DNA from: an uncultured Candidatus Peribacteria bacterium
GTDB lineage: Bacteria; Patescibacteriota; Gracilibacteria; RBG-16-42-10
Length of the DNA stretch: 64,000 nt
Assembly: GCA_964512325.1 (NCBI GenBank)
Contig: CAZEGN010000001.1
Span: 89,483-153,482 of the forward strand
Direction of reading: 5' to 3'
Shown here in pieces: positions 5,148-23,781 of this stretch. How positions within the stretch are numbered: position 1 is the first letter of the stretch; the number at the start of each line of letters is the position of its first letter. The notes beneath the pieces were generated by a model. The model was not told where the DNA came from. It did not search any database and saw only the letters and a program-made list of their open reading frames with translations. Both the position numbers and the translations under genes were made by a program.

Positions 5148-5453
5148 ATGTCTGCAAACGATCAGTCAAATTCCTCAACGAATAACAGCTCAAAATCTCG
5201 ACAAGCTCATCGTGTAGGGAAGTACATTGTGGAAATCGATCGCAGCAAGTGTATTAGTGTGGCCAATTGCGTTGCCATTACACCAGATGTATTTGAACTT
5301 GATGAAGAACAAATCGCAGTATTTCTAGAGCCTAATGCCGAAACGGGGAAATATGAGAGTGATGATGATACAGTGCTCATGTCCGCTCGCAGCTGTCCGA
5401 CACAGGCCATTATCATCAAAGATGCTGAGACTGGAGAGCAAATTTTCCCTTAG
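5148..5453 (+). CDS. small single-cluster ferredoxin
   Basis: YIVEIDRSKCISVANCVAITPDVF ... SCPTQAIII, the Cys spacing of short Fe-S ferredoxins. Confidence 0.6.
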   Translation: MSANDQSNSSTNNSSKSRQAHRVGKYIVEIDRSKCISVANCVAITPDVFELDEEQIAVFLEPNAETGKYESDDDTVLMSARSCPTQAIIIKDAETGEQIFP

Positions 5454-5561: not shown

Positions 5562-7265
5562 ATGCGCAAAGCTCATACGTTTCTCTATACAGCGTTAGGC
5601 TTACTCACTCTCTTGAGCACGAGTAATGTTGCCAATGCTATCGTTCTTGATCCTTCAATTTCACTCCTTTTGATTCCACCCACAGTAGAATCTGTTAGTC
5701 CAACCTTTAATGAACGCGTTGTTGTACCTGCCAGTACAAACTCAAAACGCACCATTGCAGTTCAATTTGACAGCAACATTGAATTTGTCGGCAATCCCCT
5801 CGATGCTGTAGTCGTGACTAATATCGGTACAGGTAGTCCGATTCCGCTTGATGATGTCTCGATCCATAAGAACATGCTTTACATCTATAGTACAGCCTTC
5901 ACGCATGATAGCACCGATGGAACCGGATACACCGCCTGGCTTAATGGTTCTCGGATAAGACGCATTGGTGGAACAACAATGGCTGATGGTGGTCTTGGAT
6001 GGGGATTTACTATTGCCAATGGTTTTGACACTATTTTTCCACCAATTCATGAAAATATCCCTAAAATAACCATTAATCAAAATGTATTTAGTGGAGCAAA
6101 TCTTGCTTTTAGTGGTACTGATAGTCGACATGTAGTGTATCGAGTGTCAGTTACTAACAACAGTGAAGGTTACACAGTAAATAACTTAACAGTCAAAGCT
6201 GTTCTGCCTAGCGGCTTTGTATACGACAGCTTAACATTTGGTACAGATGTTACTGTAAGCGGTAGCCGTGTGCTTACTTTTAATATTGGCACACCAATTA
6301 CACCTAGCAGTACCAAGATCTTTGATTATCGAGTTAGTGTCCCTAGCACATTAGCTGATGGCGTTTATGATAGTAGTGCTATGGCTACAGCGGAGTTCTC
6401 TCCATCCGGTATTAATTCTGATCGCTACAGCCTCCCAGCAAGAATCAGTCATTTTGACGACAACCGAGCTGATGACGACAATGTGACTATTTCACACCTT
6501 ACCCCTACCCCGACTCCCACTCCAACGCCAACCACAACCGCAAGCCCAACGCCTTCTTCAACTTCAACACCCACATCAACCAGTACACCATCTGCGACAC
6601 CAACCAGCACTAGCACAGCATTATCTCACCCCAGCTCTGATCCATTAACATGCCTCCGTCTTAATGGAGCGGTAGCGACAAGCTTCAGTGATGTGCCATC
6701 ATCCTTGCTTGAAGCTCCATATGTATCGTTTTTGAATACTACCGTGTTTGCAAGCAACCCCGATGTGCGTCTTTCTCGTGGTTATGCAAACGGCACCTTT
6801 GGTACAAATAACACCTTAACTCGTTTTGAGTTAACTAAAATGGCCTTAGGAGCCAACTGTATTAATTACAATGAAAGCCCCGCCCCAAATCGAGCATTTA
6901 GTGACGTGCCTACTGATAATTCTGAAATGTCATTAGTAATTGGAAAAGCAAAGTCACTTGGCATTGTGCAGGGTATTGGCAATCAATTTTTTCCTAATCG
7001 TCCAGTGAGTTATGGAGAAATGGTAAAAATTCTAGTTGGGTCAGGAGTCTATTTTGATCGCGGCACACCTACACGTACGCTCACACATACTTTAAGCGGC
7101 ATTACTGATGAGTCTTTCCGCCAATTTGCTGAATACAGTGCACGAATGAATCTGGTTAATTTAAATGGTAGCGCTTTCCCTCAAAATGATTCCGTACAAC
7201 GTCGTTATATGGCCCAAGCAGTAGCTCGTTATATCGCTTGGCTTAAAAACATTTCTCTTCTCTAA
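5562..7265 (+). CDS. secreted surface protein: DUF11-like repeat, Thr/Pro/Ser linker, two SLH domains
   Basis: Signal peptide. VVYRVSVTNNSEGYTVNNLTVKAVLPSGFVY is DUF11-like. There is a TPTPTPTPTPT... linker and two FSDVP...(G)...F.PN...R.E... SLH-type units at the C-terminus. Confidence 0.65.
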   Translation: MRKAHTFLYTALGLLTLLSTSNVANAIVLDPSISLLLIPPTVESVSPTFNERVVVPASTNSKRTIAVQFDSNIEFVGNPLDAVVVTNIGTGSPIPLDDVSIHKNMLYIYSTAFTHDSTDGTGYTAWLNGSRIRRIGGTTMADGGLGWGFTIANGFDTIFPPIHENIPKITINQNVFSGANLAFSGTDSRHVVYRVSVTNNSEGYTVNNLTVKAVLPSGFVYDSLTFGTDVTVSGSRVLTFNIGTPITPSSTKIFDYRVSVPSTLADGVYDSSAMATAEFSPSGINSDRYSLPARISHFDDNRADDDNVTISHLTPTPTPTPTPTTTASPTPSSTSTPTSTSTPSATPTSTSTALSHPSSDPLTCLRLNGAVATSFSDVPSSLLEAPYVSFLNTTVFASNPDVRLSRGYANGTFGTNNTLTRFELTKMALGANCINYNESPAPNRAFSDVPTDNSEMSLVIGKAKSLGIVQGIGNQFFPNRPVSYGEMVKILVGSGVYFDRGTPTRTLTHTLSGITDESFRQFAEYSARMNLVNLNGSAFPQNDSVQRRYMAQAVARYIAWLKNISLL

Positions 7266-8624: not shown

Positions 8625-9800
8625 TTACGTGCGATCCGTTTTGAATTGATGTAATTGTGGGGGAGAAAAGATTATCTTTACCAAAAAGTAGCAGAATTGA
8701 AGCAATCTCAGGTAAAAACCAAGCAGATACAAAGCTAAATTCAAAAAAGAAAAACATTGTCTCCAAACCAGATGAATAATCGCAGGTATAATGAACAGGA
8801 TGATAAACATTGGCCATGATCGCCATAACAAATAGGGTGAAATAGCAATAGCAATGAACTCTAAAATGAATACTATATACCAGCAAATTCCAGCAACAGA
8901 CTGCTTTAGGGTAAGCGACACATGATATCTTTGTGCTAATGAAAAGTAGCAAAAAACGCCATGCAGTATCGGAATTATTTGCCGAAAGGCATTGCCTAAA
9001 TTGGGTGGTGATTGAACTTGAGTAAAAAATGGCAGCGAGCGGTAAGCAACGCCTTTCCAGCGAAGCAAATACTGCAACGGAATATCATCAATTGGCTCAG
9101 GAAAAGCAGGCAGCTTGTCCCAAAGCTGCGGCGCTATCACCATAGTAGCGCCCATAGGATAATTCCAGCTAGCTGATGCTATCAATGAAGGAATATATTC
9201 CCACACGAAAACCCTTTCCAAATGGTGCAACATCAATGCTGCTACACTCTTACTATAAGCAGCAATCTTCGACACTGGCACAAAAGAGTAAATACAAGCA
9301 TTACCCTTGTTAAGGAAACTTCGATCTACTTGTATAAAGTCATCTATTGCGATACGCGCATCACAGTCAAAACAGACCACGTAAGGAAACTGTTGTTGCT
9401 GATACTTTGTGCGTACCCAGTGCAAACCAACATTTAACTGGGTCGCCTTCGTGCCCGTCATCTGGTGTGATTCTACTACATGAATACGCTCGCGAAAGCC
9501 TGAACCTTGCCTGTAAGCTTCAATATATTCAGCGGTATTATTGCTATCCCCTCTTTCTTTAATAGTAGTAATAAAAAGGAGCTGAATATTTTCTGAATAA
9601 GCAAGGAAAGATTCATAATATTGCAGCGTATCGCGTATAATCTTTTGCTCCCGAAAAACCGGAAAAAGAAACACATAGCCATGTAGCACTGCTTTTGAAG
9701 GAGATAAGGGCGACGCTGTCCTTCGGCGCCAGCGCCAATTGCTCAATGTGATTGAAACAATGAAGACACGATACAGCAATATAATCGCGACTAGGTACAT
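8625..9800 (-). CDS. family-2 glycosyltransferase with C-terminal TM helices
   Basis: N-terminal TM, GT-A like core with a VVCFDCDARI (DxD) motif, and several C-terminal hydrophobic helices. Confidence 0.6.
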   Translation of the reverse strand: MYLVAIILLYRVFIVSITLSNWRWRRRTASPLSPSKAVLHGYVFLFPVFREQKIIRDTLQYYESFLAYSENIQLLFITTIKERGDSNNTAEYIEAYRQGSGFRERIHVVESHQMTGTKATQLNVGLHWVRTKYQQQQFPYVVCFDCDARIAIDDFIQVDRSFLNKGNACIYSFVPVSKIAAYSKSVAALMLHHLERVFVWEYIPSLIASASWNYPMGATMVIAPQLWDKLPAFPEPIDDIPLQYLLRWKGVAYRSLPFFTQVQSPPNLGNAFRQIIPILHGVFCYFSLAQRYHVSLTLKQSVAGICWYIVFILEFIAIAISPYLLWRSWPMFIILFIIPAIIHLVWRQCFSFLNLALYLLGFYLRLLQFCYFLVKIIFSPPQLHQFKTDRT

Positions 9801-10648
9801 AGCGCTAATTGTGTTATTGCTTCATCTTTAAATGGATAGTCTTCTTGGTAGCCGCGGTACTCAAAGTATGACACAGCCGCCAGATACTCTATTCCCGTAA
9901 AGCAAAACAACTTCTCTCGCTCTAGGGCTTGTGGTTTACGCCCTAGGTAGGCTCCTAATAACTCAGTTGCCGCCAGAGCATCACTACCTAATACACGCCA
10001 GACAAACTTGGCCAAATCACTGTATACATCTCCTTGACCAGTGCGCTCAAAGTCGAGCAATGCAAAAGGTTGCTCTGCTGCTTGTGCATAAAGAATATTA
10101 CCGGCATTGAGGTCACCATGGATTAAGTCGGCTGACCTCACCTCAAATGAATCTAAAGCGTTCTTTATACGTGCAGACATCTTTAAAGCCAAACTGCACT
10201 CTTCAGCTTTTAAATGCCGTGCAGAATGAAAGTTCTGCTCATAAAGTGCCAGCATTTTTCTGATATTACTCTTTGTCATTGTTGGAACAGGGAGTTGATG
10301 GAATGACTTTAGTGTATTGGCGAAGACAGGCAATTCTTGATCTAGCAAAGTGGACTTTTTTAAAGGTTGACCGACGAGAAACGTCATCATTAGTACTAGC
10401 CTTTGATCATCAGCATGTATGAGTTTAGGCACTCGAAAATCCAGCTTATGACCGGCTAAAGTCTCAAGCCAGTACTTTTCAGCCTGATAATGCGCTGCTG
10501 TATCATATGCTTTGATGACCCCAGACACATCTTCAGGCAGAGTGACCTCAAGTAAGCAATTTTGAAATGTACGACGCACCGACTTGATTTTCGCAGCCGG
10601 AAATAGGTCACTAATATGTTCTACCGATAGCAATGGCATGATAGGCAA
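9791..10648 (-). CDS. APH/choline-kinase-fold phosphotransferase
   Basis: LIHGDLNAGNILY ... LLDFERTGQGDVYSDLAKF (Brenner/APH catalytic and DFE/DxD motifs). Confidence 0.7.
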   Translation of the reverse strand: MPIMPLLSVEHISDLFPAAKIKSVRRTFQNCLLEVTLPEDVSGVIKAYDTAAHYQAEKYWLETLAGHKLDFRVPKLIHADDQRLVLMMTFLVGQPLKKSTLLDQELPVFANTLKSFHQLPVPTMTKSNIRKMLALYEQNFHSARHLKAEECSLALKMSARIKNALDSFEVRSADLIHGDLNAGNILYAQAAEQPFALLDFERTGQGDVYSDLAKFVWRVLGSDALAATELLGAYLGRKPQALEREKLFCFTGIEYLAAVSYFEYRGYQEDYPFKDEAITQLALCT

Positions 10649-15006: not shown

Positions 15007-15083
15007 GTATCCGTAGCTCAGCTGGATAGAGCGCAACCCTGCGGAGGTTGAGGCCAGAGGTTCGAATCCTCTCGGATACACCA
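15007..15083 (+). tRNA. tRNA-Arg, anticodon GCG, CCA encoded
   Basis: Hand-folded cloverleaf. Acceptor GTATCCG/CGGATAC, D arm GCTC-AGCTGGATA-GAGC, anticodon arm CAACC-CTGCGGA-GGTTG (U33, GCG, G37), T arm AGAGG-TTCGAAT-CCTCT, A73, CCA. Confidence 0.9.
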
Positions 15084-16523
15084 ACGTTGACGATCGTTAC
15101 ATTTGAGTATCAAATCAAATGGTTCGTAGGCTTCGTATACTATTTTTTTGCCTTCGAGCCTGAGGTTCTGAAGTGTCAGTTTTACTATTTGCCTTTTCTG
15201 TTCGACTTCTGAACCCACGAATAGTTCGTGAGCATGCTTAGCAAGCCTTAATACGCATTCAGCTGTGGTGTAATAATTGTCCTCGGCGTTTTTTAAGAGA
15301 GCGAGTCTAGCCTCAATGTCGCTTATTTTATCCTGGAACTGTTGCTGGTAATTGTCATACTCGCTCTCAGTAATACGCCTGTCGAGTCTATCCATGTACA
15401 ACCTTTCGCGTCGACCCAAGTACAATTCTCTTTCTTTAAGCAGCTGATCACTCTGTTCTTTTCGATACTCCATCTTGCCCTTATGTAGATTTTTTAAACT
15501 ATTTGTCAGATCTTCAAGAACATCCTCAGGAAGCTGCATCCCTTTAAAAACTATCTCAAGCTGAGATGTGATATCTTCTTCACGTACCCATGGTGCGCCA
15601 TGTTTCCCATTGTATTGGGTGCAATGGTAGTAGACGTGGCCTTTATGCTTCTCTGGAGTAATAGCCAAGCCACAGTCAGCACAGCGCAATAAGCCACGGT
15701 AATAGTAGGTTTTACCGGCATACTTGAATGGCTTCTTACAAAAACCAGCCTTGACCTGCTGCACCATATCAAACAGCTCTTTAGAGATAATGGGTTTGTA
15801 CCTGTGTGGGTAGGGTTTATCATCCCACTTCATGACACCATAGTAGAATGAATTCTTCAAAATTTTATCTAAGTATCCTTTTGACCAGTCAATACCATAG
15901 TCTTTCTTCAACTTTGCCCTTAAGAGTTCCATCGAAAAAGCCTGGGATGCATATAATTGGTACACCTCCAGAATAACTTTACTAAAAAATGCATCATGCA
16001 CATTATCCTTTTGCCCATTTTCCGTAACAACACATTGATATCCACGAGGAGCTTTTGCAGGATACTCACCCTTTAATAACTTTTGCTGTTGCGACCTCTT
16101 CACGTTATCTCTGAGCTGTAAAACGTAGGATTTGGCAAACATTACGCCCATATCCCAACGCATAATGTCAGAACTGTTAGAATTTTTAGAAATAATGAGG
16201 CCTTCCCTGAGAAAGTGGATTTCAAGCTTGTCTCTTTTGCATAATTCATCAAGCACAGGACTCTCTTTGAAGCTTCTTTGCAAACGATCTATTGTCTCAA
16301 TAATCAAAGCAACTTTCTCATTACTATTTTCGATCTCAACAATTACATCTTCAAATCTTTTTCGTTCTTCCTTCGTAGAGCTCTCATCAATCTTATGCTC
16401 TTTTTTGATCTCAAGGCCTTTTGCCGAACAGTATTGACGCATTTTTGCAACCTGTGCAGGAATCGAATAGCCTTCCTGCATCTGTTCCTTCGTCGACACT
16501 CTAGCAAAGATAATGGCTTTCAT
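15018..16523 (-). CDS. large serine recombinase (integrase); last 66 nt antisense to tRNA-Arg
   Basis: MKAIIFARVSTKEQ resolvase-type catalytic Ser domain, recombinase domain, Zn-ribbon CADCGLAITPEKHKGHVYYHC and a coiled-coil tail. I prefer the Met at 16523 over the track start at 16595. The stop TGA (15018-15020) lies in the tRNA D arm. Confidence 0.85.
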   Translation of the reverse strand: MKAIIFARVSTKEQMQEGYSIPAQVAKMRQYCSAKGLEIKKEHKIDESSTKEERKRFEDVIVEIENSNEKVALIIETIDRLQRSFKESPVLDELCKRDKLEIHFLREGLIISKNSNSSDIMRWDMGVMFAKSYVLQLRDNVKRSQQQKLLKGEYPAKAPRGYQCVVTENGQKDNVHDAFFSKVILEVYQLYASQAFSMELLRAKLKKDYGIDWSKGYLDKILKNSFYYGVMKWDDKPYPHRYKPIISKELFDMVQQVKAGFCKKPFKYAGKTYYYRGLLRCADCGLAITPEKHKGHVYYHCTQYNGKHGAPWVREEDITSQLEIVFKGMQLPEDVLEDLTNSLKNLHKGKMEYRKEQSDQLLKERELYLGRRERLYMDRLDRRITESEYDNYQQQFQDKISDIEARLALLKNAEDNYYTTAECVLRLAKHAHELFVGSEVEQKRQIVKLTLQNLRLEGKKIVYEAYEPFDLILKCNDRQRWCIREDSNLWPQPPQGCALSS

Positions 16524-16527
16524 AAGA

Positions 16528-16704
16528 TTATTTAATACTATCGCGTTCAAGAAAAAGGTCGAGCTGTTCCTTACTGATGCGGTATTGCTTACCAACCTTG
16601 TAAGCCTTTAATTTACCAGCCTTTACCCATCGATACACAGTAAGATAAACCACTTTCAACATCGCTGCTACTTCATCAAGAGTGTAATATTCTATTTGCT
16701 GCAT
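16528..16704 (-). CDS. excisionase/MerR-type helix-turn-helix DNA-binding protein (58 aa)
   Basis: Own translation: MQQIEYYTLDEVAAMLKVVYLTVYRWVKAGKLKAYKVGKQYRISKEQLDLFLERDSIK, the typical 'excisionase family' HTH pattern. It is below the ORF-track size cut-off and sits 9 nt after the Rep-like stop and 4 nt before the recombinase ATG. Confidence 0.6.
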   Translation of the reverse strand: MQQIEYYTLDEVAAMLKVVYLTVYRWVKAGKLKAYKVGKQYRISKEQLDLFLERDSIK

Positions 16705-16712
16705 GATATGCT

Positions 16713-17873
16713 TTAGTTATCTTTATTTAACATCTTACCAAGGCTAGAATCAAGTTTAAGTGGAACAAAAGCTATAAGATGTTCACGAACCAGATCAAAG
16801 GTGTCCTTGCTTGTGGGTAAAGAAATGTCTCTGGCTTCACCCATCAAACGGTACCAACTTCGTGAGTGGCATCGTCCAAACATTAGGCGCAACTCACGAG
16901 TACTAACCCTATCAAGTGCCTGTTTAAGTCCGAAAATTTGTATGATACGACTAATACTCAACTTAGGGTTATGTATTATTAAATCAGCTAGAAAGTCTTT
17001 ATCTGATCTACTTTGATACTTTGCATAAAATGGTCTCTTCTTTTCCATTTCATCAAGAAAGTGAAGAAGTATGGCTTGAGACTTTTTCGAGTCAAACAGA
17101 TCTCGTAGTGTTAAATTGTTAGGCATATTAATCGTCTTCATCAACTGCTTTACCTTTGCTCTTTTGTTCAACCGTACTTCAATGCGCAACACTTCAAATG
17201 GTTTCTTGGTATCAAGCTGGTCGAACAACGATAATTGAATGCCATTGTCCTTTTCAATAGCTCTTTTACCACTTACCTTAGCCTTCTCAAGATCTTTACG
17301 TTTGTCATAAAAGGCTACCTCATAGGAATTACAATGCCATTTGAAGCTGGTCCCATCATTACGAAAATCCGTTTGGTTAACATCTACTGAAAGATTGATA
17401 TTAGCTTCTTTTATTTTCCCAATGTAATAATGCGGCGTAGTACCATCGGTTAAAACGATGTTCTTAGAGTAATGAATCGCTGACACGGGAGCACTTATTA
17501 AAGCATAAGACCAAACCAGAACTCCCATTTCTTTCAAACTCTTTTCTAGCAAATCTATCACTACAGCGAACTCATCATTTTGTAACTCATCAAAGTTGTT
17601 TCCAAATAGTAGCTTCGACAAAGACAACTCAATCCTGAGGGATGCCTCGCAATGCTTGCTCAAGTGATTGTAACGATTTGTAAGAGTAAGACGAGGCCTA
17701 TAAATCCCATTACGCAATTCAGTAGGAGTAGGATTTTGTTTAGAAACAATATAGCCTCTACCACCGAATCTGGACTCATCATCCAATATCCAGCGAGCTG
17801 AAGGTGTGAATTTGTCAGGTTCAAGAATAGTGTATTTCCCCTCGCTAAGCACCAATACTATCGTGTCTATCAT
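16713..17873 (-). CDS. replication-initiation-like protein (phage/plasmid gene II/X-type?)
   Basis: The N-terminal MIDTIVLVL... and LRIELSLSKLLFGNNFDEL resemble, from memory, phage/plasmid replication proteins. No HUH motif was identified. The context with the recombinase supports the call. Confidence 0.4.
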   Translation of the reverse strand: MIDTIVLVLSEGKYTILEPDKFTPSARWILDDESRFGGRGYIVSKQNPTPTELRNGIYRPRLTLTNRYNHLSKHCEASLRIELSLSKLLFGNNFDELQNDEFAVVIDLLEKSLKEMGVLVWSYALISAPVSAIHYSKNIVLTDGTTPHYYIGKIKEANINLSVDVNQTDFRNDGTSFKWHCNSYEVAFYDKRKDLEKAKVSGKRAIEKDNGIQLSLFDQLDTKKPFEVLRIEVRLNKRAKVKQLMKTINMPNNLTLRDLFDSKKSQAILLHFLDEMEKKRPFYAKYQSRSDKDFLADLIIHNPKLSISRIIQIFGLKQALDRVSTRELRLMFGRCHSRSWYRLMGEARDISLPTSKDTFDLVREHLIAFVPLKLDSSLGKMLNKDN

Positions 17874-18138
17874 ACAGCTTAGTTACTTTTTCAAATTTAG
17901 TGATAATGAGCTGCTCAACTAGCTTGGCCATGCTTCTGTTAATTGGATAAAAGATGGCCAAGCTATTGTCTGCCACTTTGCGTGTGGGATAGGTTAAACG
18001 GTATCCACCATGCGGCCTGGTATAAATTCCGATTGAACCACAATAAAAAGCCGAACCAAAAACAAAACTGGCAAAGCCAACTAATCCTAACTTGGGTTTA
18101 ATTGGTATTACTTGAATCTCTGTGATCATCTGCTGCAT
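17845..18138 (-). CDS. SpoVG-like small nucleic-acid-binding protein
   Basis: ITEIQVIPIKPKLGLVGFASFVFGSAFYCGSIGIYTRPHGGYRLTYPTRK...IFYPINRSMAKLVEQLIITKF follows the SpoVG pattern (beta strands, then 'P..R' and 'hP.n...r..i'). It overlaps the Rep-like start by 29 nt. Confidence 0.4.
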   Translation of the reverse strand: MQQMITEIQVIPIKPKLGLVGFASFVFGSAFYCGSIGIYTRPHGGYRLTYPTRKVADNSLAIFYPINRSMAKLVEQLIITKFEKVTKLYDRHDSIGA

Positions 18139-18341
18139 AAGGCTGAGTTAGTTTTAATTTACGATCGACTTCAATAAGAATAGAAAAGAAAGCCGTCAGA
18201 CGATCTAGAGCTTCAACTGACAACTTCTTTTCCGGCAATGTTTTCTTTACGTCATCATCACTCACTGGCATTCTCTAAAGTCGCCGTGAGATTAGAGAAA
18301 CCAGAGAGGTACCCAGTGGGACCCGTTGTGGTACCACTAAG

Positions 18342-19505
18342 TTAAGGCCAATATATTGGATTCACTTTAACTGAGCTTTTAGTAAAGATTAGGAATTGCA
18401 CCACACCCGATTTGGCAGCAATCCTTCGGACAATCGCTTTACAGACCTCATAGAACTTATCCCTCTCTTCTTTTCCAAACTTCTCAACCTTTATACCTTC
18501 TATTAGCTCGTTGAGTTCATCGTAAAACCATTCCTGGTGTACTGCGTTATCGTCCTTCAGCACAATATTCAACAGATCCCTAGTCTTTGAGGGCCTAAAA
18601 GCAAGACGACACCCATCCACGATTAGCTCTCCCAACTCCTTTTCGTAAATCCATTTGATCTTTTTTCCGGTTACGGGAGAAACTTCAACATCCACACCCT
18701 GCATACTCGACAAATAGTGTTTAGTGTAAAGGTGAACTCTTTCTAGGCAAGTGCGGTGTTCTTCCATTTCGTTCATATCCTGCGCAGAGAAACTACTATT
18801 GATACCATTATCTCCCATCAAATGCTGTATTTTCTTGAAAGCTGAATGGGTAGCTAATACCATGAGTAGCTTTTCACTTTTAATGTACTCGGCACTCGCT
18901 ATTTCGTAATCCCTATACAACGCACAAAAACCGGTCAATTTATCCCAAGCAAACCATATCTCAAACGACTGTAAGCGTTCAATCCTACTGCTTTCAGCCT
19001 TCCACTTATTATAAGCTGGCTCAAACTGCAGATCCTCTATCTGCTTTGTATTTGTAATAGTAGCGAATTGCGTTACAAATTTATCAGCATCTCGACATGT
19101 AGATCCTAGCAATAAATGAAATGTTCTACCTAAAACAAAGAACTTGGTCTCAGTCACGGCTGCCGAAGTAAGAATTCTATTCTCTTCATGAGCATAAAAC
19201 TCTGCCAGAGGAAACTTTATTTCTTTGAGCTCAGCATTATTCTGTTTTATAAACTCCACTATTGCCTTAAATACAGATTCCATTTCCGTATTAGCAGCAT
19301 GAGCGAGTTGATTCAACAAAGCTAAACCATGCTCTTTGTGTTCGTGAATTGCCATGACAATAGGCCCAAGCACATCGTTTTCATCGTAAAGACTTATATA
19401 CTCATACATTGCTTGAAAAAAATCCGTAGGCTTGCTAGCAGCCCTTGCCCTAAGATAGATGCTTTCCAGTTTTTCTAACAATAGTTCTACTTTTCCCATA
19501 ATCAT
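18342..19505 (-). CDS. hypothetical protein, 387 aa, no recognisable domain
   Basis: Long uninterrupted ORF on the same strand as the element genes. No motif was recognised. Confidence 0.5.
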   Translation of the reverse strand: MIMGKVELLLEKLESIYLRARAASKPTDFFQAMYEYISLYDENDVLGPIVMAIHEHKEHGLALLNQLAHAANTEMESVFKAIVEFIKQNNAELKEIKFPLAEFYAHEENRILTSAAVTETKFFVLGRTFHLLLGSTCRDADKFVTQFATITNTKQIEDLQFEPAYNKWKAESSRIERLQSFEIWFAWDKLTGFCALYRDYEIASAEYIKSEKLLMVLATHSAFKKIQHLMGDNGINSSFSAQDMNEMEEHRTCLERVHLYTKHYLSSMQGVDVEVSPVTGKKIKWIYEKELGELIVDGCRLAFRPSKTRDLLNIVLKDDNAVHQEWFYDELNELIEGIKVEKFGKEERDKFYEVCKAIVRRIAAKSGVVQFLIFTKSSVKVNPIYWP

Positions 19506-19586
19506 TACATCTTCAAAGCACTCGACATTAGCATGAAAGAAAAATGAAAATGATGCAAGAATATCTACAGTTGTAGACTCTAGTGA

Positions 19587-20234
19587 TTACTTCAATAGAT
19601 TCTTGATTTTACTACATGTAACTTTACGTTCAATAAAACTTATTATTTTCAGATAAAGGACTCTAAGTTCGTCTGCAATATCAGCCATATATATATGGTA
19701 CCCATCAATTCTTAACTCATGGGCATCCGAGGACAAATTTAAGACGGGCGAATTCCCTACGTGACCTTCAAATCGTGTTTCAGCATGCTCAACAGCAGCA
19801 CGCATACTTGCTAATAATGCAATATTATTTCCTGTAATTGAAGGAAATACCGCCCGCATCTTATTTATGCGGTTTAGCGCATTTAGAAGATTTTCAAGGT
19901 GATCAATGATAGTAGCAGTATATATTGGTTGAACACCATTAATTAGAACCGATCTAAACTTAGGCTTAAACCTTCGACTAAATCGTCTATTAATTTGTGA
20001 GAATGTAAGTCTAGATTCTTTTACCTCTTCAAGAACAACCTCCCGAACCATTGTGTATTCCCACACCGCTTTATCAATAAGTCGCACTAAAATTACCAGC
20101 CCTTTCTGCTCTTTTGTGGATAATGCTTGATTGAGACCACAGAAAGACGCTGCAAAGTAGCAGCCCGTTGCTGAAGGTATATCATTTTCAATACTCGGCA
20201 TTTTACAATTTTGCATTCTCATAGTGTATTTCAA
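19587..20234 (-). CDS. hypothetical protein, 215 aa, no recognisable domain
   Basis: The ORF starts 8 nt after the tyrS stop on the same strand. No motif was recognised and the start codon is uncertain (several Mets in the first 12 codons). Confidence 0.5.
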   Translation of the reverse strand: MKYTMRMQNCKMPSIENDIPSATGCYFAASFCGLNQALSTKEQKGLVILVRLIDKAVWEYTMVREVVLEEVKESRLTFSQINRRFSRRFKPKFRSVLINGVQPIYTATIIDHLENLLNALNRINKMRAVFPSITGNNIALLASMRAAVEHAETRFEGHVGNSPVLNLSSDAHELRIDGYHIYMADIADELRVLYLKIISFIERKVTCSKIKNLLK

Positions 20235-20242
20235 AGTTTAGC

Positions 20243-21376
20243 CTAGGCTCTAGTCACAAGACATGCTTCTAATTCATCTAGCATCTTTCTCCCTTCACCT
20301 TTACTAAAGTGCTCTCTCACTGGAGCTAAAAGTTCAATCAGGTATTCAGCCACAAATTGTTTCAGATCTTTAGGATGAATCATTCCATCCTTGAACAGCT
20401 GTACTAATTCTGGAAAAGAGCTAATGTTGAGATTACCACCAAACTTTTCATCTCGTTGGATAGTAACACTTGATTCACGAGAGAAGATGAGGTGCTCAAC
20501 CCAATCTAATACGGGGTTGAATTCAGTTTCCTTTTCTGGACAGAAAGCTTTCATGACTTTTCTTTGTATTTCTTCTGGCTCGTCATGAATAAAGACTGCA
20601 CTGTCTGGTTTCGATTTACTCATCTTCATGGACGACCAAATGTCTTGCCTATCCATATCAGTAGGAATAGGCCACACACTTGGTTTTTGTAATCCGAGGA
20701 GGAGATGATGATGAACAGCTACAGGTTTTACTATATTTCCCCCTAATCGTAGGGGACTGATAGTCAGCTTGTCAGCAACATCTCGTGCAATCACCTGTGC
20801 CTTTCTCTGATCCATACCTGCATGAGCTATGTGAATTCCTTGCACAAAAATATCTGCTACCTGCATAGCTGGGTACATGAGCTTAGCAAAATCTACTTCA
20901 TCACCTTCTTTTCTTCCAAGAATTGTAATACTGCGCTTCATACGCGAAAGCGTCGTGTGTTTACCTACTTCAACTACTGTATCCCAGTATTCAGGATGTT
21001 TGCTATAGAGTTCAGAACCAAGGACAAAAGTAAGCTTATCTGGATTCCCACCAAGACATTTAAAAGCGATTTTGAGTCCTTCCTGAAAGTAGCCGATAGC
21101 AATTTTCTTGATCTTAGCTCTGTCTCCCCCTAGTTTATCATTAATCCAAGTATGCCAGTCCGCCAAAAAGACGTGACAGTTTACACCAGCATCTTGGAAG
21201 TCTTTCACTTTTTGCATACACACCAGACCTGTCCCTAGATGAATCTTTCCAGAGATCTCGAAACCAATGTAATGGTTGAGCGGCTGTGACGACTCTAGCA
21301 TTTTCTTCAGGTCTTCCTCTGTCATGATATCTTCTGTGCGCGCTTTGATACGAGCAAGTTGGTCTTTGGCAATCAT
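20243..21376 (-). CDS. tyrS: tyrosyl-tRNA synthetase, archaeal/eukaryal type (no bacterial S4-like C-terminal domain)
   Basis: A class I aaRS with HYIGFEISGKIHLGTG (HIGH region), FLADWHTWINDKLGGD, YPAMQVADIF..IAHAGMDQRKA and a literal KMSKS. The pattern is collinear with my recollection of Methanocaldococcus jannaschii TyrRS (AYIGFEPSGKIHLGHY, LLADLHAYLN, YPIMQVNDIH..GGMEQRK, KMSSSK, KFGGD, LHPMDLKNAVAE). Confidence 0.85.
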   Translation of the reverse strand: MIAKDQLARIKARTEDIMTEEDLKKMLESSQPLNHYIGFEISGKIHLGTGLVCMQKVKDFQDAGVNCHVFLADWHTWINDKLGGDRAKIKKIAIGYFQEGLKIAFKCLGGNPDKLTFVLGSELYSKHPEYWDTVVEVGKHTTLSRMKRSITILGRKEGDEVDFAKLMYPAMQVADIFVQGIHIAHAGMDQRKAQVIARDVADKLTISPLRLGGNIVKPVAVHHHLLLGLQKPSVWPIPTDMDRQDIWSSMKMSKSKPDSAVFIHDEPEEIQRKVMKAFCPEKETEFNPVLDWVEHLIFSRESSVTIQRDEKFGGNLNISSFPELVQLFKDGMIHPKDLKQFVAEYLIELLAPVREHFSKGEGRKMLDELEACLVTRA

Positions 21377-21389
21377 AGGATAAAATTAT

Positions 21390-21465
21390 TGGTCCAGCGG
21401 GTAAGATTTGAACTTACATAACCTGGTTTTACAGACCAGTGCATAAACCACTCTGCCACCGCTGG
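21390..21465 (-). tRNA. tRNA-Tyr, anticodon GUA, C1-G72, 5-nt variable loop, CCA encoded
   Basis: Hand fold of the - strand: CCAGCGG TG GCAG AGTGGTTT ATGC A CTGGT CTGTAAA ACCAG GTTAT GTAAG TTCAAAT CTTAC CCGCTGG A CCA (76 nt). Confidence 0.9.
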
Positions 21466-21470
21466 TGAAA

Positions 21471-21512
21471 CAAAAAAAGCCACCCTCAACATAAAGATTA
21501 TGCAAGGGCGGC
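21471..21512 (-). terminator. intrinsic terminator of the T-box leader
   Basis: - strand A-GCCGCCCU ... AGGGUGGC-U stem (extendable via GCAUAA/UUAUGU) followed by UUUUUUU. It ends about 6 nt before the tRNA-Tyr 5' end. Confidence 0.75.
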
Positions 21513-21784
21513 TATATAATTTCATAATTAGACCGCGGTACCACCTTACTTTAAATAAACTATTACTAGCTTATTACTTTTCATCCTCAATCAAGGACTT
21601 ACGCTGTAACGGGCGATCCCGTTGAACTCTACAAGCCGAAGCTTTCGTGTTCACCTTTCCGAAGGAGTATTTCCTACTCTCATGATACGATAGCCTCGCA
21701 ACGACCGGCTATTTCGAGTGTCACCCATGATTTTGTACTGCATCCTTCTTCACTAAGTTTAGGAAGACCGAATTTTCAAAGAGC
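21471..21784 (-). promoter_or_regulatory. T-box riboswitch leader (presumably Tyr-specific)
   Basis: AGUAAGGUGGUACCGCGGUC (21550-21531) matches the T-box consensus AANNNGGGUGGNACCGCG. The antiterminator is GUAAGG/CCUUGC + 7-nt bulge UGGUACC + GCGGU/GCCGC, and its 3' strand is the 5' arm of the terminator. UGGU is complementary to the ACCA end (A73) of the adjacent tRNA-Tyr. An AUGAGAGUA motif (21683-21675) resembles the Stem I K-turn/specifier 5' side. Confidence 0.75.
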
Positions 21785-21790
21785 ATCTGC

Positions 21791-21818
21791 ACTATAGCAT
21801 CTTTTTACAGAATGTCCA
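21791..21818 (-). promoter_or_regulatory. promoter of the T-box/tRNA-Tyr/tyrS transcript
   Basis: - strand TGGACA (21818-21813) - 16 nt - TGcTATAGT (extended -10, 21799-21791). Confidence 0.5.
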
Positions 21819-21902
21819 TTAAGACACCACTACGTCATCCATTTAAAAATGGCTATAACTAACTGATATTAGCGCAATTTCATCACATCAAAACTGCTTA
21901 GC

Positions 21903-21930
21903 TTGTCGAAAAGTCATAAGAATGTATGAT
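21903..21930 (+). promoter_or_regulatory. candidate promoter of the 22096 operon leader
   Basis: TTGTCG - 16 nt - TATGAT. The predicted start coincides with the first base of the 14-bp P1 helix at 21937. Confidence 0.4.
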
Positions 21931-21936
21931 ACTAAC

Positions 21937-22072
21937 GACGTTTCACTTCAATTTGTTTTTCTTGGTCATTTTTGTGCGCATCTGTGGTAACGCGGGGTCA
22001 ATCCCACTTGCTTACAGATGCCTTCGCAAGAAGACTGAAGTGAGACGTCCAAGATGGGGTTGGTCCCATTTT
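21937..22072 (+). ncRNA. unclassified structured 5' leader (three-way junction plus terminator-like hairpin)
   Basis: P1 21937-21950/22036-22049 (14 bp, one G-U). P2 21978-21985/22014-22021 (8 bp). P3 CUUC-GCAA-GAAG 22022-22033 (GNRA loop). Then hairpin AUGGG(G)-UUGG-(U)CCCAU + UUU at 22054-22072, 24 nt before the ATG. Confidence 0.45.
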
Positions 22073-22095
22073 GCTTAATCACTTAAGTTATTTTT

Positions 22096-23781
22096 ATGAA
22101 AACTGTTTACCTGGTACGGAAATTGATGCTACTCAGCATCGCGTTGGTATCATTAATCGGTCCTGCACAGGCAAATGCAGATACATATGTGCGTGGTTAC
22201 TATCGCAGTAATGGGACATACGTACAGCCCCACTATCGATCTAGTCCTGATAGCTCTGTGACAAACAATTATAGCTATTGTGGTAATACAAATCCTTATA
22301 CAGGCACTACTGGCACACAAGGTTGTGGAAGTGGAAGCAGTAGCTATAGTCTCCCTAGTTACACCGCACCAAGTTATGTTACTCCAACGCCTATCAGTTA
22401 CCCCTCTATACAAGTTCCATCATATACACCATACACCTATACCCCACTTGCAATTCCTACCCATACACCTTATGTATATACTCCTCCTGCAGCTCCCACA
22501 TACGAACCTCCCATTGTAGCACCGCCATCAAATAATACAGAATCACATGATACTACCAATAATACTTATGTTACAGCTCAATTAGTAGCAGACTTAGGAA
22601 ATAACCATCTACTTGTTCTTGATGGTCAGGAAGCATTCTTTGATATCACCTATCATGGATGTCTTAGTACTAACTTCAATAAGGGTGAGTCATTACATTT
22701 TAACCAAGCACAAGGTTACTTTCTTGCTGGCAATGTAACTGCTTATGATCGCTGCTCTATAGGTGAAGCCAAGAAGCTTAACCTGTTTAAGTATGCTCTT
22801 TCCGATGTCATTTTAGCTTCTAGCCAGGTTGTCCTAGAAGATGCAAACGGTCAAAAGTGGATTAGCACGTATTACGAGGGCTGTTCCAGTTTGGCTCTGT
22901 ATAAGGGGCATGACGTAGTAGTAAACGTAGACGAGAATGGCTCTGATGATCGCATAATTTTGGTACAAGAAAAAGAAACATGCCTTTTTAGCAAAGCGCA
23001 ATTGTACAATCCTGAATTGGCTACTACAGATATTCCTTTACCAACAACATCGTCAGAGTTTTTAGACGTACATGATGACACCCCCTTTGCTCCGGCTATC
23101 CGGTTTTTGCAAAACAGAGGGATTGTCGCTGGTCTTTCTGATGGGACATTCCATCCCAATAACTTTCTCACCAGAGCTGAATTACTTAAGATGGTTCTTC
23201 TGGCCAAACAAGATAACGGTATTGGTGAAAGCTACAGTAGCAGTTGCTTTTCTGACGTTGATGCGACCACTTGGTATGCAAGATTTGTATGCTATGCCAA
23301 GGAAAATCAGATTATTGGGGGGTATGATGATGGGACATTTAAGCCAGGACAACCAGTATCATACGTAGAAGCCCTGAAAATCACTCTAAATATACTTGGT
23401 CACACACCAAGTACTACAACTAATCCCTGGTATGACGCTTTTCTTACCAAGACAGACGAAGTCAAAGCTGGAGTGGCAGATACTAAGCTTAATGATCCGC
23501 TAACCCGAGGAAAAATGGCAGAGCTAATCACTAGAATTATTAAGTACGATGAAGAAGGACCAAATAGTAGCTATCTTACAGGTTACCAACCACTTAAATC
23601 TTCTGTATTACAACCCATAGTTTCTGCAGCTCCAGAAAGTGTATCGACATCTAAAGTGCCATCTAGTACTTACTACACACCTGAAAGTGCTACAGCACTC
23701 TGTAATGATGGCACATACAGTTTCAGTGCAAATCGACAAGGTAGTTGTTCACACCATGATGGGGTTGCTCAATGGTTATAA
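22096..23781 (+). CDS. secreted protein: YxRxNGTYVxPHYR motif, Tyr/Thr/Pro-rich spacer, two SLH domains, C-terminal DUF3761-like Cys motif
   Basis: Signal peptide. YVRGYYRSNGTYVQPHYRSSPD. SLH units FLDVHDDTPFAPAIRFLQNRGIVAGLSDGTFHPNNFLTRAELLKM and FSDVDATTWYARFVCYAKENQIIGGYDDGTFKP. Tail CNDGTYSFSANRQGSCSHHDGVAQWL. Confidence 0.65.
   Translation: MKTVYLVRKLMLLSIALVSLIGPAQANADTYVRGYYRSNGTYVQPHYRSSPDSSVTNNYSYCGNTNPYTGTTGTQGCGSGSSSYSLPSYTAPSYVTPTPISYPSIQVPSYTPYTYTPLAIPTHTPYVYTPPAAPTYEPPIVAPPSNNTESHDTTNNTYVTAQLVADLGNNHLLVLDGQEAFFDITYHGCLSTNFNKGESLHFNQAQGYFLAGNVTAYDRCSIGEAKKLNLFKYALSDVILASSQVVLEDANGQKWISTYYEGCSSLALYKGHDVVVNVDENGSDDRIILVQEKETCLFSKAQLYNPELATTDIPLPTTSSEFLDVHDDTPFAPAIRFLQNRGIVAGLSDGTFHPNNFLTRAELLKMVLLAKQDNGIGESYSSSCFSDVDATTWYARFVCYAKENQIIGGYDDGTFKPGQPVSYVEALKITLNILGHTPSTTTNPWYDAFLTKTDEVKAGVADTKLNDPLTRGKMAELITRIIKYDEEGPNSSYLTGYQPLKSSVLQPIVSAAPESVSTSKVPSSTYYTPESATALCNDGTYSFSANRQGSCSHHDGVAQWL

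Follow-up and report, generated by a model that had tools for sequence, protein, structure and literature searches.

A predicted T-box leader ahead of a tRNA-Tyr gene and an archaeal-type tyrS gene in a bacterium of the candidate phyla radiation

RESULTS

A tRNA-Tyr gene and an archaeal-type tyrS gene follow the leader

We have analysed a 64-kb stretch of DNA from an uncultured bacterium (contig CAZEGN010000001.1), referred to here as the window, whose numbering is used for all coordinates. A compact cassette, located entirely on the minus strand, comprises a predicted promoter, a leader with the features of a tyrosine-specific T-box riboswitch, a gene for tRNA-Tyr with the anticodon GUA and tyrS, which encodes a tyrosyl-tRNA synthetase (TyrRS) (Table 1). 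Our proposal is that these elements constitute a single transcription unit, in which read-through of the T-box terminator would deliver both the tRNA that the leader senses and the synthetase. Bacterial rpoB, rpoC, fusA, tuf, rplD and serS genes are all present in the window. The rpoB product has its best match, at 89% identity, in a protein named for Ca. Abawacabacteria, followed by proteins of Gracilibacteria and Peregrinibacteria, and the GC content is even (0.39-0.43). By these markers the host is a bacterium of the candidate phyla radiation (CPR, or Patescibacteria) close to Ca. Abawacabacteria, and not an archaeon.

Table 1. Predicted features of the cassette, from the promoter to the end of tyrS (nt, nucleotides; aa, amino acids)
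Feature	Position	Strand	Basis or detail
Sigma-70-type extended -10 promoter	21818-21791	-	promoter scan, 10/12 match with TG
-35 box TGGACA	21818-21813	-	followed by 16-nt spacer
Extended TG	21799-21798	-	
-10 box TATAGT	21796-21791	-	
T-box leader RNA, ~313 nt	21784-21472	-	from inferred start to end of U-tract
Stem I	21757-21655	-	cmscan alignment
Stem I, basal part			basal helix CUU/AAG; GA (K-turn-like) motif AGUGA/GGA; helix GAAGG/CCUUC
Stem I, upper part			specifier loop with AGUA, distal bulge, apical loop GGUCGUUGCGAG
Specifier codon UAC (Tyr)	21669-21667	-	read directly; U next, then closing helix
Stem II (UGAAC/GUUCA with inner hairpin AGC-UUCG-GCU) and Stem IIA/B hairpin CGGGAUCGCCCG	21653-21610	-	cmscan alignment
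Linker hairpin UCCU-UGAUUG-AGGA	21597-21584	-	cmscan alignment and sequence
AU-rich Stem III	~21575-21553	-	cmscan alignment and sequence
Antiterminator	21549-21502	-	ViennaRNA fold of 21552-21500
Antiterminator helices			A1 GUAAGG/CCUUGC; A2 GCGGU/GCCGC
7-nt bulge UGGUACC	21543-21537	-	UGGU at 21543-21540
Intrinsic terminator, hairpin AGCCGCCCUUGCAUAA-UCU-UUAUGUUGAGGGUGGCU plus U7	21513-21472	-	U7 at 21478-21472
Spacer GUUUCA, 6 nt, U-tract to tRNA +1	21471-21466	-	read from sequence
tRNA-Tyr(GUA), 76 nt	21465-21390	-	ARAGORN; Rfam tRNA, 64.5 bits
AU-rich spacer AUAAUUUUAUCCU, 13 nt, no Shine-Dalgarno sequence	21389-21377	-	read from sequence
tyrS, 377 aa, ATG at 21376	21376-20243	-	NF006330

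ARAGORN, the Rfam tRNA model and direct reading of the sequence agree on the tight packing of terminator, tRNA gene and tyrS start codon described in the initial annotation. The tRNA-Tyr gene (CCAGCGG...CCGCUGG-A-CCA) specifies a C1-G72 pair, A73, an encoded CCA end, the anticodon loop CUGUAAA and a variable loop of 5 nt; judged by these elements, the tRNA is of the archaeal/eukaryal identity type with a class I variable loop. The neighbouring enzyme scores 423 bits on the NCBIfam model NF006330, for which the cut-off is 220. Its HIGH motif reads HLGT (residues 46-49) and its KMSKS motif occupies residues 251-255, while the only Pfam domain is tRNA-synt_1b, with no S4-like C-terminal domain. 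Its best Protein Data Bank (PDB) chains are 2cyc_A (E = 7e-134), 7fg6 and 2cya, followed by the 1j1u group, whereas the bacterial TyrRS 1h3e matches at 6e-6 only. We take 2cyc, 2cya, 2cyb and 1j1u to be archaeal enzymes. On these matches the tyrS product is a TyrRS of archaeal/eukaryal type, and the earlier pairing of a C1-G72, short-loop tRNA with an archaeal-type enzyme is upheld by the protein family score, the PDB matches and the tRNA sequence alike. Neither a second tRNA-Tyr gene nor a bacterial-type TyrRS was found within the 64-kb window.

The tRNA-Tyr beside close homologues of this TyrRS has C1...G72 in all 13 bacterial loci, which belong to CPR bacteria and Dormibacterota. From these neighbouring tRNA types we indirectly predict that the window enzyme would charge C1-G72 tRNA-Tyr and reject the G1-C72 type. 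An exception to the pairing is found on the metagenomic contig L092 (L-numbers denote such contigs throughout), where a G1-C72 tRNA lies beside an archaeal-type enzyme; that enzyme is more distant.

The leader has the architecture of a tyrosine T-box

The Rfam T-box model RF00230 covers positions 21762-21501 over its whole length (model positions 1-219) at 71.4 bits, with E-values of 2e-15 locally and 1.8e-13 when the whole window is searched with all 4227 families. The conserved T-box sequence AAGGUGGUACCGCGG is found in the leader. The specifier loop ends in GAAA-UAC-U (21673-21666), and the UAC specifier is complementary to the GUA anticodon of the tRNA encoded downstream, the genes behind the leader being those for tRNA-Tyr and TyrRS. 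The CGGG...CCCG block in the region of Stem II and Stem IIA/B is invariant across the family alignment described below, and the region of the linker hairpin and Stem III (21597-21553) is the least supported part of the leader.

The antiterminator is predicted to fold as two helices around a 7-nt bulge (-13.6 kcal/mol, ViennaRNA), and the UGGU of this bulge is complementary to the 3' end A73-C-C-A of the tRNA. The terminator hairpin (21513-21478) has 15 bp and a predicted stability of -19.7 kcal/mol when positions 21512-21468 are folded. The strand GCCGCCCUUGC is common to both structures, the 5' arm of the terminator being the 3' half of the antiterminator. A simple terminator scan of the window missed this hairpin because the stem is interrupted by an inner bulge and the loop region is long. 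A leader of about 310 nt with mutually exclusive structures, as originally annotated, is thus borne out by its length, the RF00230 E-value and the shared strand. Apart from the curated score and the partly diverged distal region of Stem I, the leader is a T-box by its sequence-level features.

The cassette is conserved in the lineage of the host

A TyrRS 92% identical to that of the window (P0001) is encoded on three contigs from other samples, L001, L002 and L003, and on each of them tyrS is preceded by tRNA-Tyr and this T-box core. A fourth independent contig, L107, encodes exactly the window protein. Between the window and L001, the tyrS coding sequence differs at 185 of 1134 nt, with 143 of these differences at third codon positions, and 59 of 132 four-fold degenerate sites are changed (44.7%). 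The leader differs at 11 of 319 nt (3.4%, or 96.6% identity) and the tRNA-Tyr gene at none of 76. Of the 11 leader differences, two are substitutions in the UUCG loop of Stem II, and others lie shortly after the start site or in the spacer behind the terminator; none of the 11 is part of a compensatory change. Because the leader has evolved some 13-fold more slowly than the neutral sites, it appears to be under strong purifying selection as an RNA, and so does the unchanged tRNA.

The DNA similarity between the window and L001 runs from the -10 box to the tyrS stop codon, with unrelated flanking sequence on either side. The promoter of L001 is directly preceded by a defence island, a 3.8-kb block that includes AbiU2 and SMC-like genes. 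The boundary of the similarity bears on the promoter itself. Promoter-like sites occur in this region at chance level (6 found, 5.1 expected), but the call is credible because the homology to L001 begins at TGnTATAGT, which is kept there. The extended -10 promoter of the initial annotation therefore stands at its original place, supported by its match and by its position relative to L001, and we infer a transcription start near 21784.

Just upstream of the promoter, a 173-nt non-coding block (21902-22074) is 90% identical to positions 1628-1801 of L001, where the defence island separates it from the promoter. The block is predicted to fold at -66.6 kcal/mol (z = -5.75 on the plus strand and -4.95 on the minus strand), and a search of the whole window with all Rfam families returned no match for it. 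It may be a structured 5' untranslated region (UTR) or a small RNA of the divergent gene for an SLH-domain protein at 22096-23781. On the other side of the cassette, a probable integrated element spans 15007-20234. It contains a gene for a large serine recombinase (16595-15018, minus strand), whose 3' end overlaps a tRNA-Arg(GCG) gene (15007-15083, plus strand); hypothetical genes and a SpoVG-like open reading frame (ORF) fill the interval up to the tyrS stop codon. No att (integration-site) repeats that would place the cassette inside this element were found.

Further T-box/tRNA-Tyr loci occur across metagenomes

Metagenomes were scanned for GGTGGTACCGCG followed after 85-115 nt by CTGTAAA and after a further 14-28 nt by TTCRA. 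The scan returned 23 loci, and in 21 of them (18 distinct) a genuine tRNA-Tyr gene immediately follows a T-box terminator. L097, which is not a T-box, and L100, a Phe T-box ahead of pheS, were set aside as chance matches. With 95.7-115 bits, ten of the 18 distinct leaders exceed the Rfam gathering score. When these 18 were aligned with the leaders of the window and L001, the UAC specifier proved invariant (20/20). Antiterminator pairing, complete in the window (11/11), reaches 9-11 of 11 positions in all 20 leaders, with compensatory changes, and every leader has the same layout of antiterminator and terminator, with a strong terminator and a U-run. The alternative pairings on which the original annotation depended are accordingly intact in all the related leaders.

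The first nucleotide of the tRNA is separated from the terminator by 0-13 nt in every one of the 20 leaders except that of L093, where the spacer has 32 nt; the spacers are so short that they leave no room for a separate promoter before the tRNA. In an alignment of the Stem I region of 15 leaders, including that of the window, 21 of 22 pairs show compensatory changes. The Stem I cells are paired in 82.7% of cases, as against 59.3% in shuffled alignments (0/500) and at most 55.5% when the partners are slid.

A tyrS gene, of bacterial or archaeal type, is found downstream in the operon wherever the contig extends far enough. Members of the downstream TyrRS clusters are named Microgenomates group bacterium and Ca. 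Shapirobacteria, from which it follows that the family is spread across the CPR. Bacterial-type operons account for 12 loci (10 distinct). Their tRNA-Tyr has G1-C72 and a long variable arm. Behind it come an unassigned ORF of about 300 aa, a gene for an M20 peptidase or a SLOG protein, and a bacterial-type tyrS whose product has S4 and SYY_C domains. Archaeal-type TyrRS genes are found at 6 loci (5 distinct). At L085, L089, L105 and L106 a short C1-G72 tRNA precedes an unassigned ORF of 297 aa, a YbaK-like editing-domain protein of 153 aa and the archaeal-type TyrRS, while L101 has archaeal-type tyrS directly behind the tRNA, like the window; at L092 the G1-C72 tRNA paired with the distant archaeal-type TyrRS is of the long-arm type. 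This distribution suggests that an archaeal pair was swapped into a pre-existing regulated operon. Counted with the lineage of L001, the T-box/tRNA-Tyr order is shared by about 19 lineages related to the window. As the operons carry either type of pair, the conserved unusual feature is the order T-box, tRNA-Tyr, tyrS and not the chimerism. The chimeric character emphasised in the initial annotation is correct for the window, where an archaeal pair stands behind a bacterial T-box, but the coupling of a T-box to the tRNA gene does not depend on that pair.

Several additional features of these operons deserve mention. The ORF of about 300 aa, for which Pfam gives no match, stands right after tRNA-Tyr in most of the metagenomic T-box operons (for example L085 4376-5269, minus strand; L094 oriented 1965-2873; L092 oriented 529-1497), and the window is without it. 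The 153-aa YbaK/tRNA_edit-domain protein, which lies between this ORF and tyrS in the archaeal-type operons, is likewise absent from the window. L085 contains two tRNA-Tyr genes: one with G1-C72 and a long arm in a Thr-Tyr-Thr cluster (9728-9814, minus strand) and one with C1-G72 and a short arm behind the T-box (5301-5376, minus strand). Since this contig holds both, the two types of tRNA-Tyr can coexist in one genome. A 384-aa ORF beside the former gene was considered as a bacterial TyrRS and rejected, being an ATP-grasp protein.

In many Microgenomates-like Tyr T-boxes the position of Stem III is taken by a GC-rich hairpin followed by U6-7, such as CGACCTCGAGTCGGTTTTTT. Hairpins of this kind are present in L084, L086 (~6980-7010, minus strand), L088, L090, L096, L098, L099, L102 and L103, and not in the window; they resemble a pause site or a first terminator placed before the antiterminator. 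In L092, L095 and L101, a near-consensus promoter (TTGACA-17-TATACT or TAGAAT) is found about 45 nt upstream of the specifier. If that promoter were used, Stem I of these three leaders would be very short and would lack the distal platform.

Most archaeal-type tRNA-Tyr/tyrS loci of bacteria are without a T-box

When 83 loci around TyrRS homologues were scanned for motifs, T-boxes turned up in the lineage of the window only, and cmscan at E <= 0.1 found none in ten bacterial tRNA-Tyr/archaeal-type tyrS loci of CPR bacteria and Dormibacterota. As neither search yielded a T-box beyond this lineage, most bacterial loci of this type appear to be without a T-box. In the CPR loci that lack it, the pair is usually embedded in a tRNA-Thr/Tyr/[tyrS]/Thr/Trp cluster. 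Archaeal-type tyrS follows tRNA-Tyr directly inside a conserved tRNA-Thr/Tyr/Thr(or Ala)/Trp cluster in other Patescibacteria, namely L004, L005, L007, L008, L021, L064, L070 and L071; in all eight the tRNA-Tyr has C1-G72, and its variable arm is long or short. In addition, three contigs binned as Woesearchaeota (L022, L014 and L063) encode a bacterial-type TyrRS homologue alongside an archaeal-type one. The bacterial-type gene lies directly upstream on the same strand in L022 (1808-2896 and 3001-4128) and in L014. The double TyrRS could be genuine or could reflect mis-binning.

DISCUSSION

Based on these observations, we propose a model in which promoter, tyrosine T-box, the very tRNA-Tyr that the T-box senses and archaeal-type tyrS form one transcription unit gated by read-through, a reading to which we assign a probability of roughly 0.8. 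The steps of the model are drawn by analogy with established T-box biology, in particular that of Bacillus subtilis tyrS and of glyQS. Uncharged tRNA-Tyr would dock on Stem I through pairing of the UAC specifier with the GUA anticodon and through contact with the tRNA elbow. Its free ACCA end would pair with the UGGU of the bulge and stabilize the antiterminator, allowing RNA polymerase to pass the terminator. Tyr-tRNA-Tyr would bind without the 3'-end contact, so that the terminator would form and transcription would stop after about 313 nt. In the read-through RNA, RNase P is expected to cut at 21465, and 3' processing to free the mature tRNA-Tyr. The remaining tyrS mRNA would keep no more than 13 nt of 5' UTR and would be translated without a Shine-Dalgarno sequence, as nearly all genes in the window presumably are. 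Of the 31 ORFs in the window, only 2 are preceded by a Shine-Dalgarno-like tetramer, the sequence ahead of the start codons being AU-rich; the lack of one before tyrS is for this reason ordinary for the organism. The nearly leaderless tyrS mRNA of the initial annotation is plausible, but with such a background it is not required.

What are the implications of placing the tRNA gene behind its own sensor? A low charging ratio would raise the enzyme and the tRNA together, and because both come from one transcript their ratio would be fixed. TyrRS would act as negative feedback on the uncharged fraction, whereas the tRNA gene would provide positive feed-forward on the sensed ligand. If this were the sole tRNA-Tyr gene of the cell, basal read-through would have to sustain the loop. 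The anatomy and the regulatory logic first put forward for the locus are supported, at the level of sequence, by purifying selection on the leader and the tRNA and by at least 18 further distinct loci.

A number of observations weigh against this model. The T-box score of the window is below the Rfam gathering score of 93, and a scan of the window at the gathering threshold reported no T-box, the match appearing in E-value mode only; of the model check suggested at the outset, the full-length match at a significant E-value stood and the curated threshold was missed. A pyrimidine (U) follows the specifier directly, where T-boxes usually have a purine. The distal bulge CUCGAAA and the apical loop GGUCGUUGCGAG keep only in part the pattern of the relatives, AGAGA(G) and GGUUGGUGCAAG. 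The exact compact form is common to only one other lineage, that of L001-L003, which is too close for compensatory changes to be expected. A weak promoter-like site, ATGAAA-17-CATAAT, lies within the leader at 21525-21497; it matches at 9 of 12 positions, a score at chance level, and could yield constitutive tRNA and tyrS transcripts that lack the 5' arm of the terminator. Finally, if the tRNA gene is the sole one, it would be risky to make an essential tRNA dependent on a terminator whose default state is closed, and basal read-through would be needed.

Three other explanations have to be weighed. One is that the cassette is an accessory second tyrosine module, inducible by starvation or stress and possibly acquired horizontally, with the housekeeping pair elsewhere, for example in a tRNA-Thr/Tyr/Thr/Trp cluster. 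We regard this as unlikely, but as the most serious of the competitors. The cassette does lie outside the canonical tRNA cluster; a probable integrated element adjoins it in the window and a defence island in L001; and its flanks are unrelated in the two genomes. The next TyrRS relatives share only about 70% identity and bear the names of other groups of Patescibacteria, and L085 illustrates a T-box-linked C1-G72 tRNA-Tyr in the company of a second, G1-C72 long-arm gene. Against a separate module stand the lack of any bacterial-type TyrRS or second tRNA-Tyr in the window, the lack of att repeats bounding the cassette and the lack of any match to the T-box/tRNA-Tyr pattern in viral contigs. Moreover, L004 (Patescibacteria) has a single pair, located in its canonical tRNA cluster, to which the tRNA and the enzyme of the cassette are closely similar, as would fit a housekeeping pair.

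It is considerably less probable that the T-box has decayed or is bypassed, so that the tRNA and tyrS would be expressed mainly from the promoter-like site embedded in the leader and charging would have little effect. The 9/12 match of that site, the sub-gathering T-box score and the diverged distal region of Stem I speak for such a scenario, but the site is at chance level and its -10 box is not kept in other leaders. In addition, the leader, including Stem I, specifier and bulge, has remained 96.6% identical while 45% of four-fold sites changed, which is unlike decay, and the terminator abuts the tRNA at 20 of 20 loci. The idea of an assembly or binning artefact, in which a tRNA/TyrRS fragment from DPANN archaea was misjoined to bacterial sequence, draws on the many close TyrRS relatives in bins labelled as DPANN archaea and on the known problem of cross-contamination between CPR and DPANN bins (PMC5370408), but is effectively refuted by the contiguity of promoter, T-box, tRNA and tyrS in the independent samples of L001, L002, L003 and L107, by the bacterial housekeeping genes and uniform GC content of the window and by the T-box itself, which is a bacterial element.

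The charging-gated unit, if it operates as proposed, would be of interest in several respects. A T-box that gates the gene of its own sensed tRNA would unite, in one circuit, negative feedback by way of the enzyme and positive feed-forward by way of the ligand; as gene-specific control of tRNA supply that depends on charging, it would be a rarity among bacteria. It would also extend T-box regulation to the CPR, whose minimal genomes have few known regulators. The occurrence of one leader family before bacterial- and archaeal-type tyrosine pairs offers a concrete series for the replacement of tRNA identity. The leader is, from its sequence, a candidate natural charging sensor for C1-G72 tRNA-Tyr, the type used in genetic code expansion. 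In broader terms, we speculate, with a little more than even confidence, that the T-boxes of the CPR represent an undescribed class whose first product is their own ligand, so that tRNA-Tyr is autoregulated by its charging and dosed together with its enzyme; that the module may have been the setting of an in-place swap from bacterial tyrosine identity (G1-C72, long arm, TyrRS with an S4 domain) to the archaeal one; and that it would provide a natural sensor of charging for tRNA-Tyr of the orthogonal type.

How does the cassette relate to systems already described? T-boxes have been described as regulating genes for synthetases, amino-acid biosynthesis and transporters, and tRNA genes are not among the targets given in the TBDB paper, in a genome survey of T-box-regulated genes or in a 2020 T-box review. 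In the full-text literature searched, which mostly excluded subscription journals, no description was found of a T-box that controls a tRNA gene or of T-boxes in the CPR. The archaeal-type TyrRS and the C1-G72 tRNA-Tyr of CPR bacteria are known from Mukai, Reynolds, Crnkovic and Soll (2017, Life 7:8; PMC5370408), who covered Parcubacteria, Microgenomates, WS6 and WWE3 and reported long-arm and short-arm versions of the tRNA. Both versions are also present among the CPR loci examined here. Unlike the present analysis, that paper makes no mention of a T-box or riboswitch or of Abawacabacteria, Peregrinibacteria or Gracilibacteria, and the link between leader and tRNA is not described. The novelty suspected initially thus holds for the T-box-controlled tRNA gene, within the literature searched, and not for the archaeal tyrosine pair as such. 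What is new, relative to that literature, is the regulated target, namely the gene of the sensor's own ligand, together with the host group and the coupling to a pair of archaeal identity.

The closest known counterpart of the leader is the T-box of B. subtilis tyrS (RF00230; Henkin and Grundy), the example on which the family was founded. It too is a transcriptional attenuator before tyrS, with a UAC specifier, a UGGU bulge facing A73-CCA, Stems I, II, IIA/B and III, and competing antiterminator and terminator. In the window, by contrast, the terminator is followed first by the gene of the sensed tRNA and only then by tyrS; a C1-G72 tRNA with a short variable loop is paired with an archaeal-type enzyme, in a host of the CPR; and Stem I has a diverged distal region and a pyrimidine after the specifier. 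A second parallel is provided by the tRNA-Trp(A73)-ORF1-TrpRS-A operons of the CPR, which are possibly tryptophan-responsive and for which a protein repressor has been proposed as regulator (PMC5370408). They share with the window the placement of a non-canonical tRNA gene and a synthetase gene in one operon, but concern another amino acid and would rely on a protein repressor in place of an RNA charging sensor. Cotranscription of tRNA and mRNA, which are then split by RNase P and 3' processing, is familiar from Escherichia coli operons of the thrU-tyrU-glyT-thrT-tufB type; these have no riboswitch, and growth-rate or stringent control is exerted at their promoter. The other CPR loci, in which tyrS sits inside a mixed tRNA cluster, are like these operons. 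Lastly, the window pair is of the same kind as the orthogonal TyrRS/tRNA-Tyr pair of Methanocaldococcus jannaschii (1j1u group), a tool of genetic code expansion, in its enzyme class, C1-G72, A73 and short variable loop. The M. jannaschii pair differs in serving an archaeal housekeeping role without a T-box and in its 306-aa enzyme, whereas the window enzyme is nearer to the 375-aa type represented by 2cyc.

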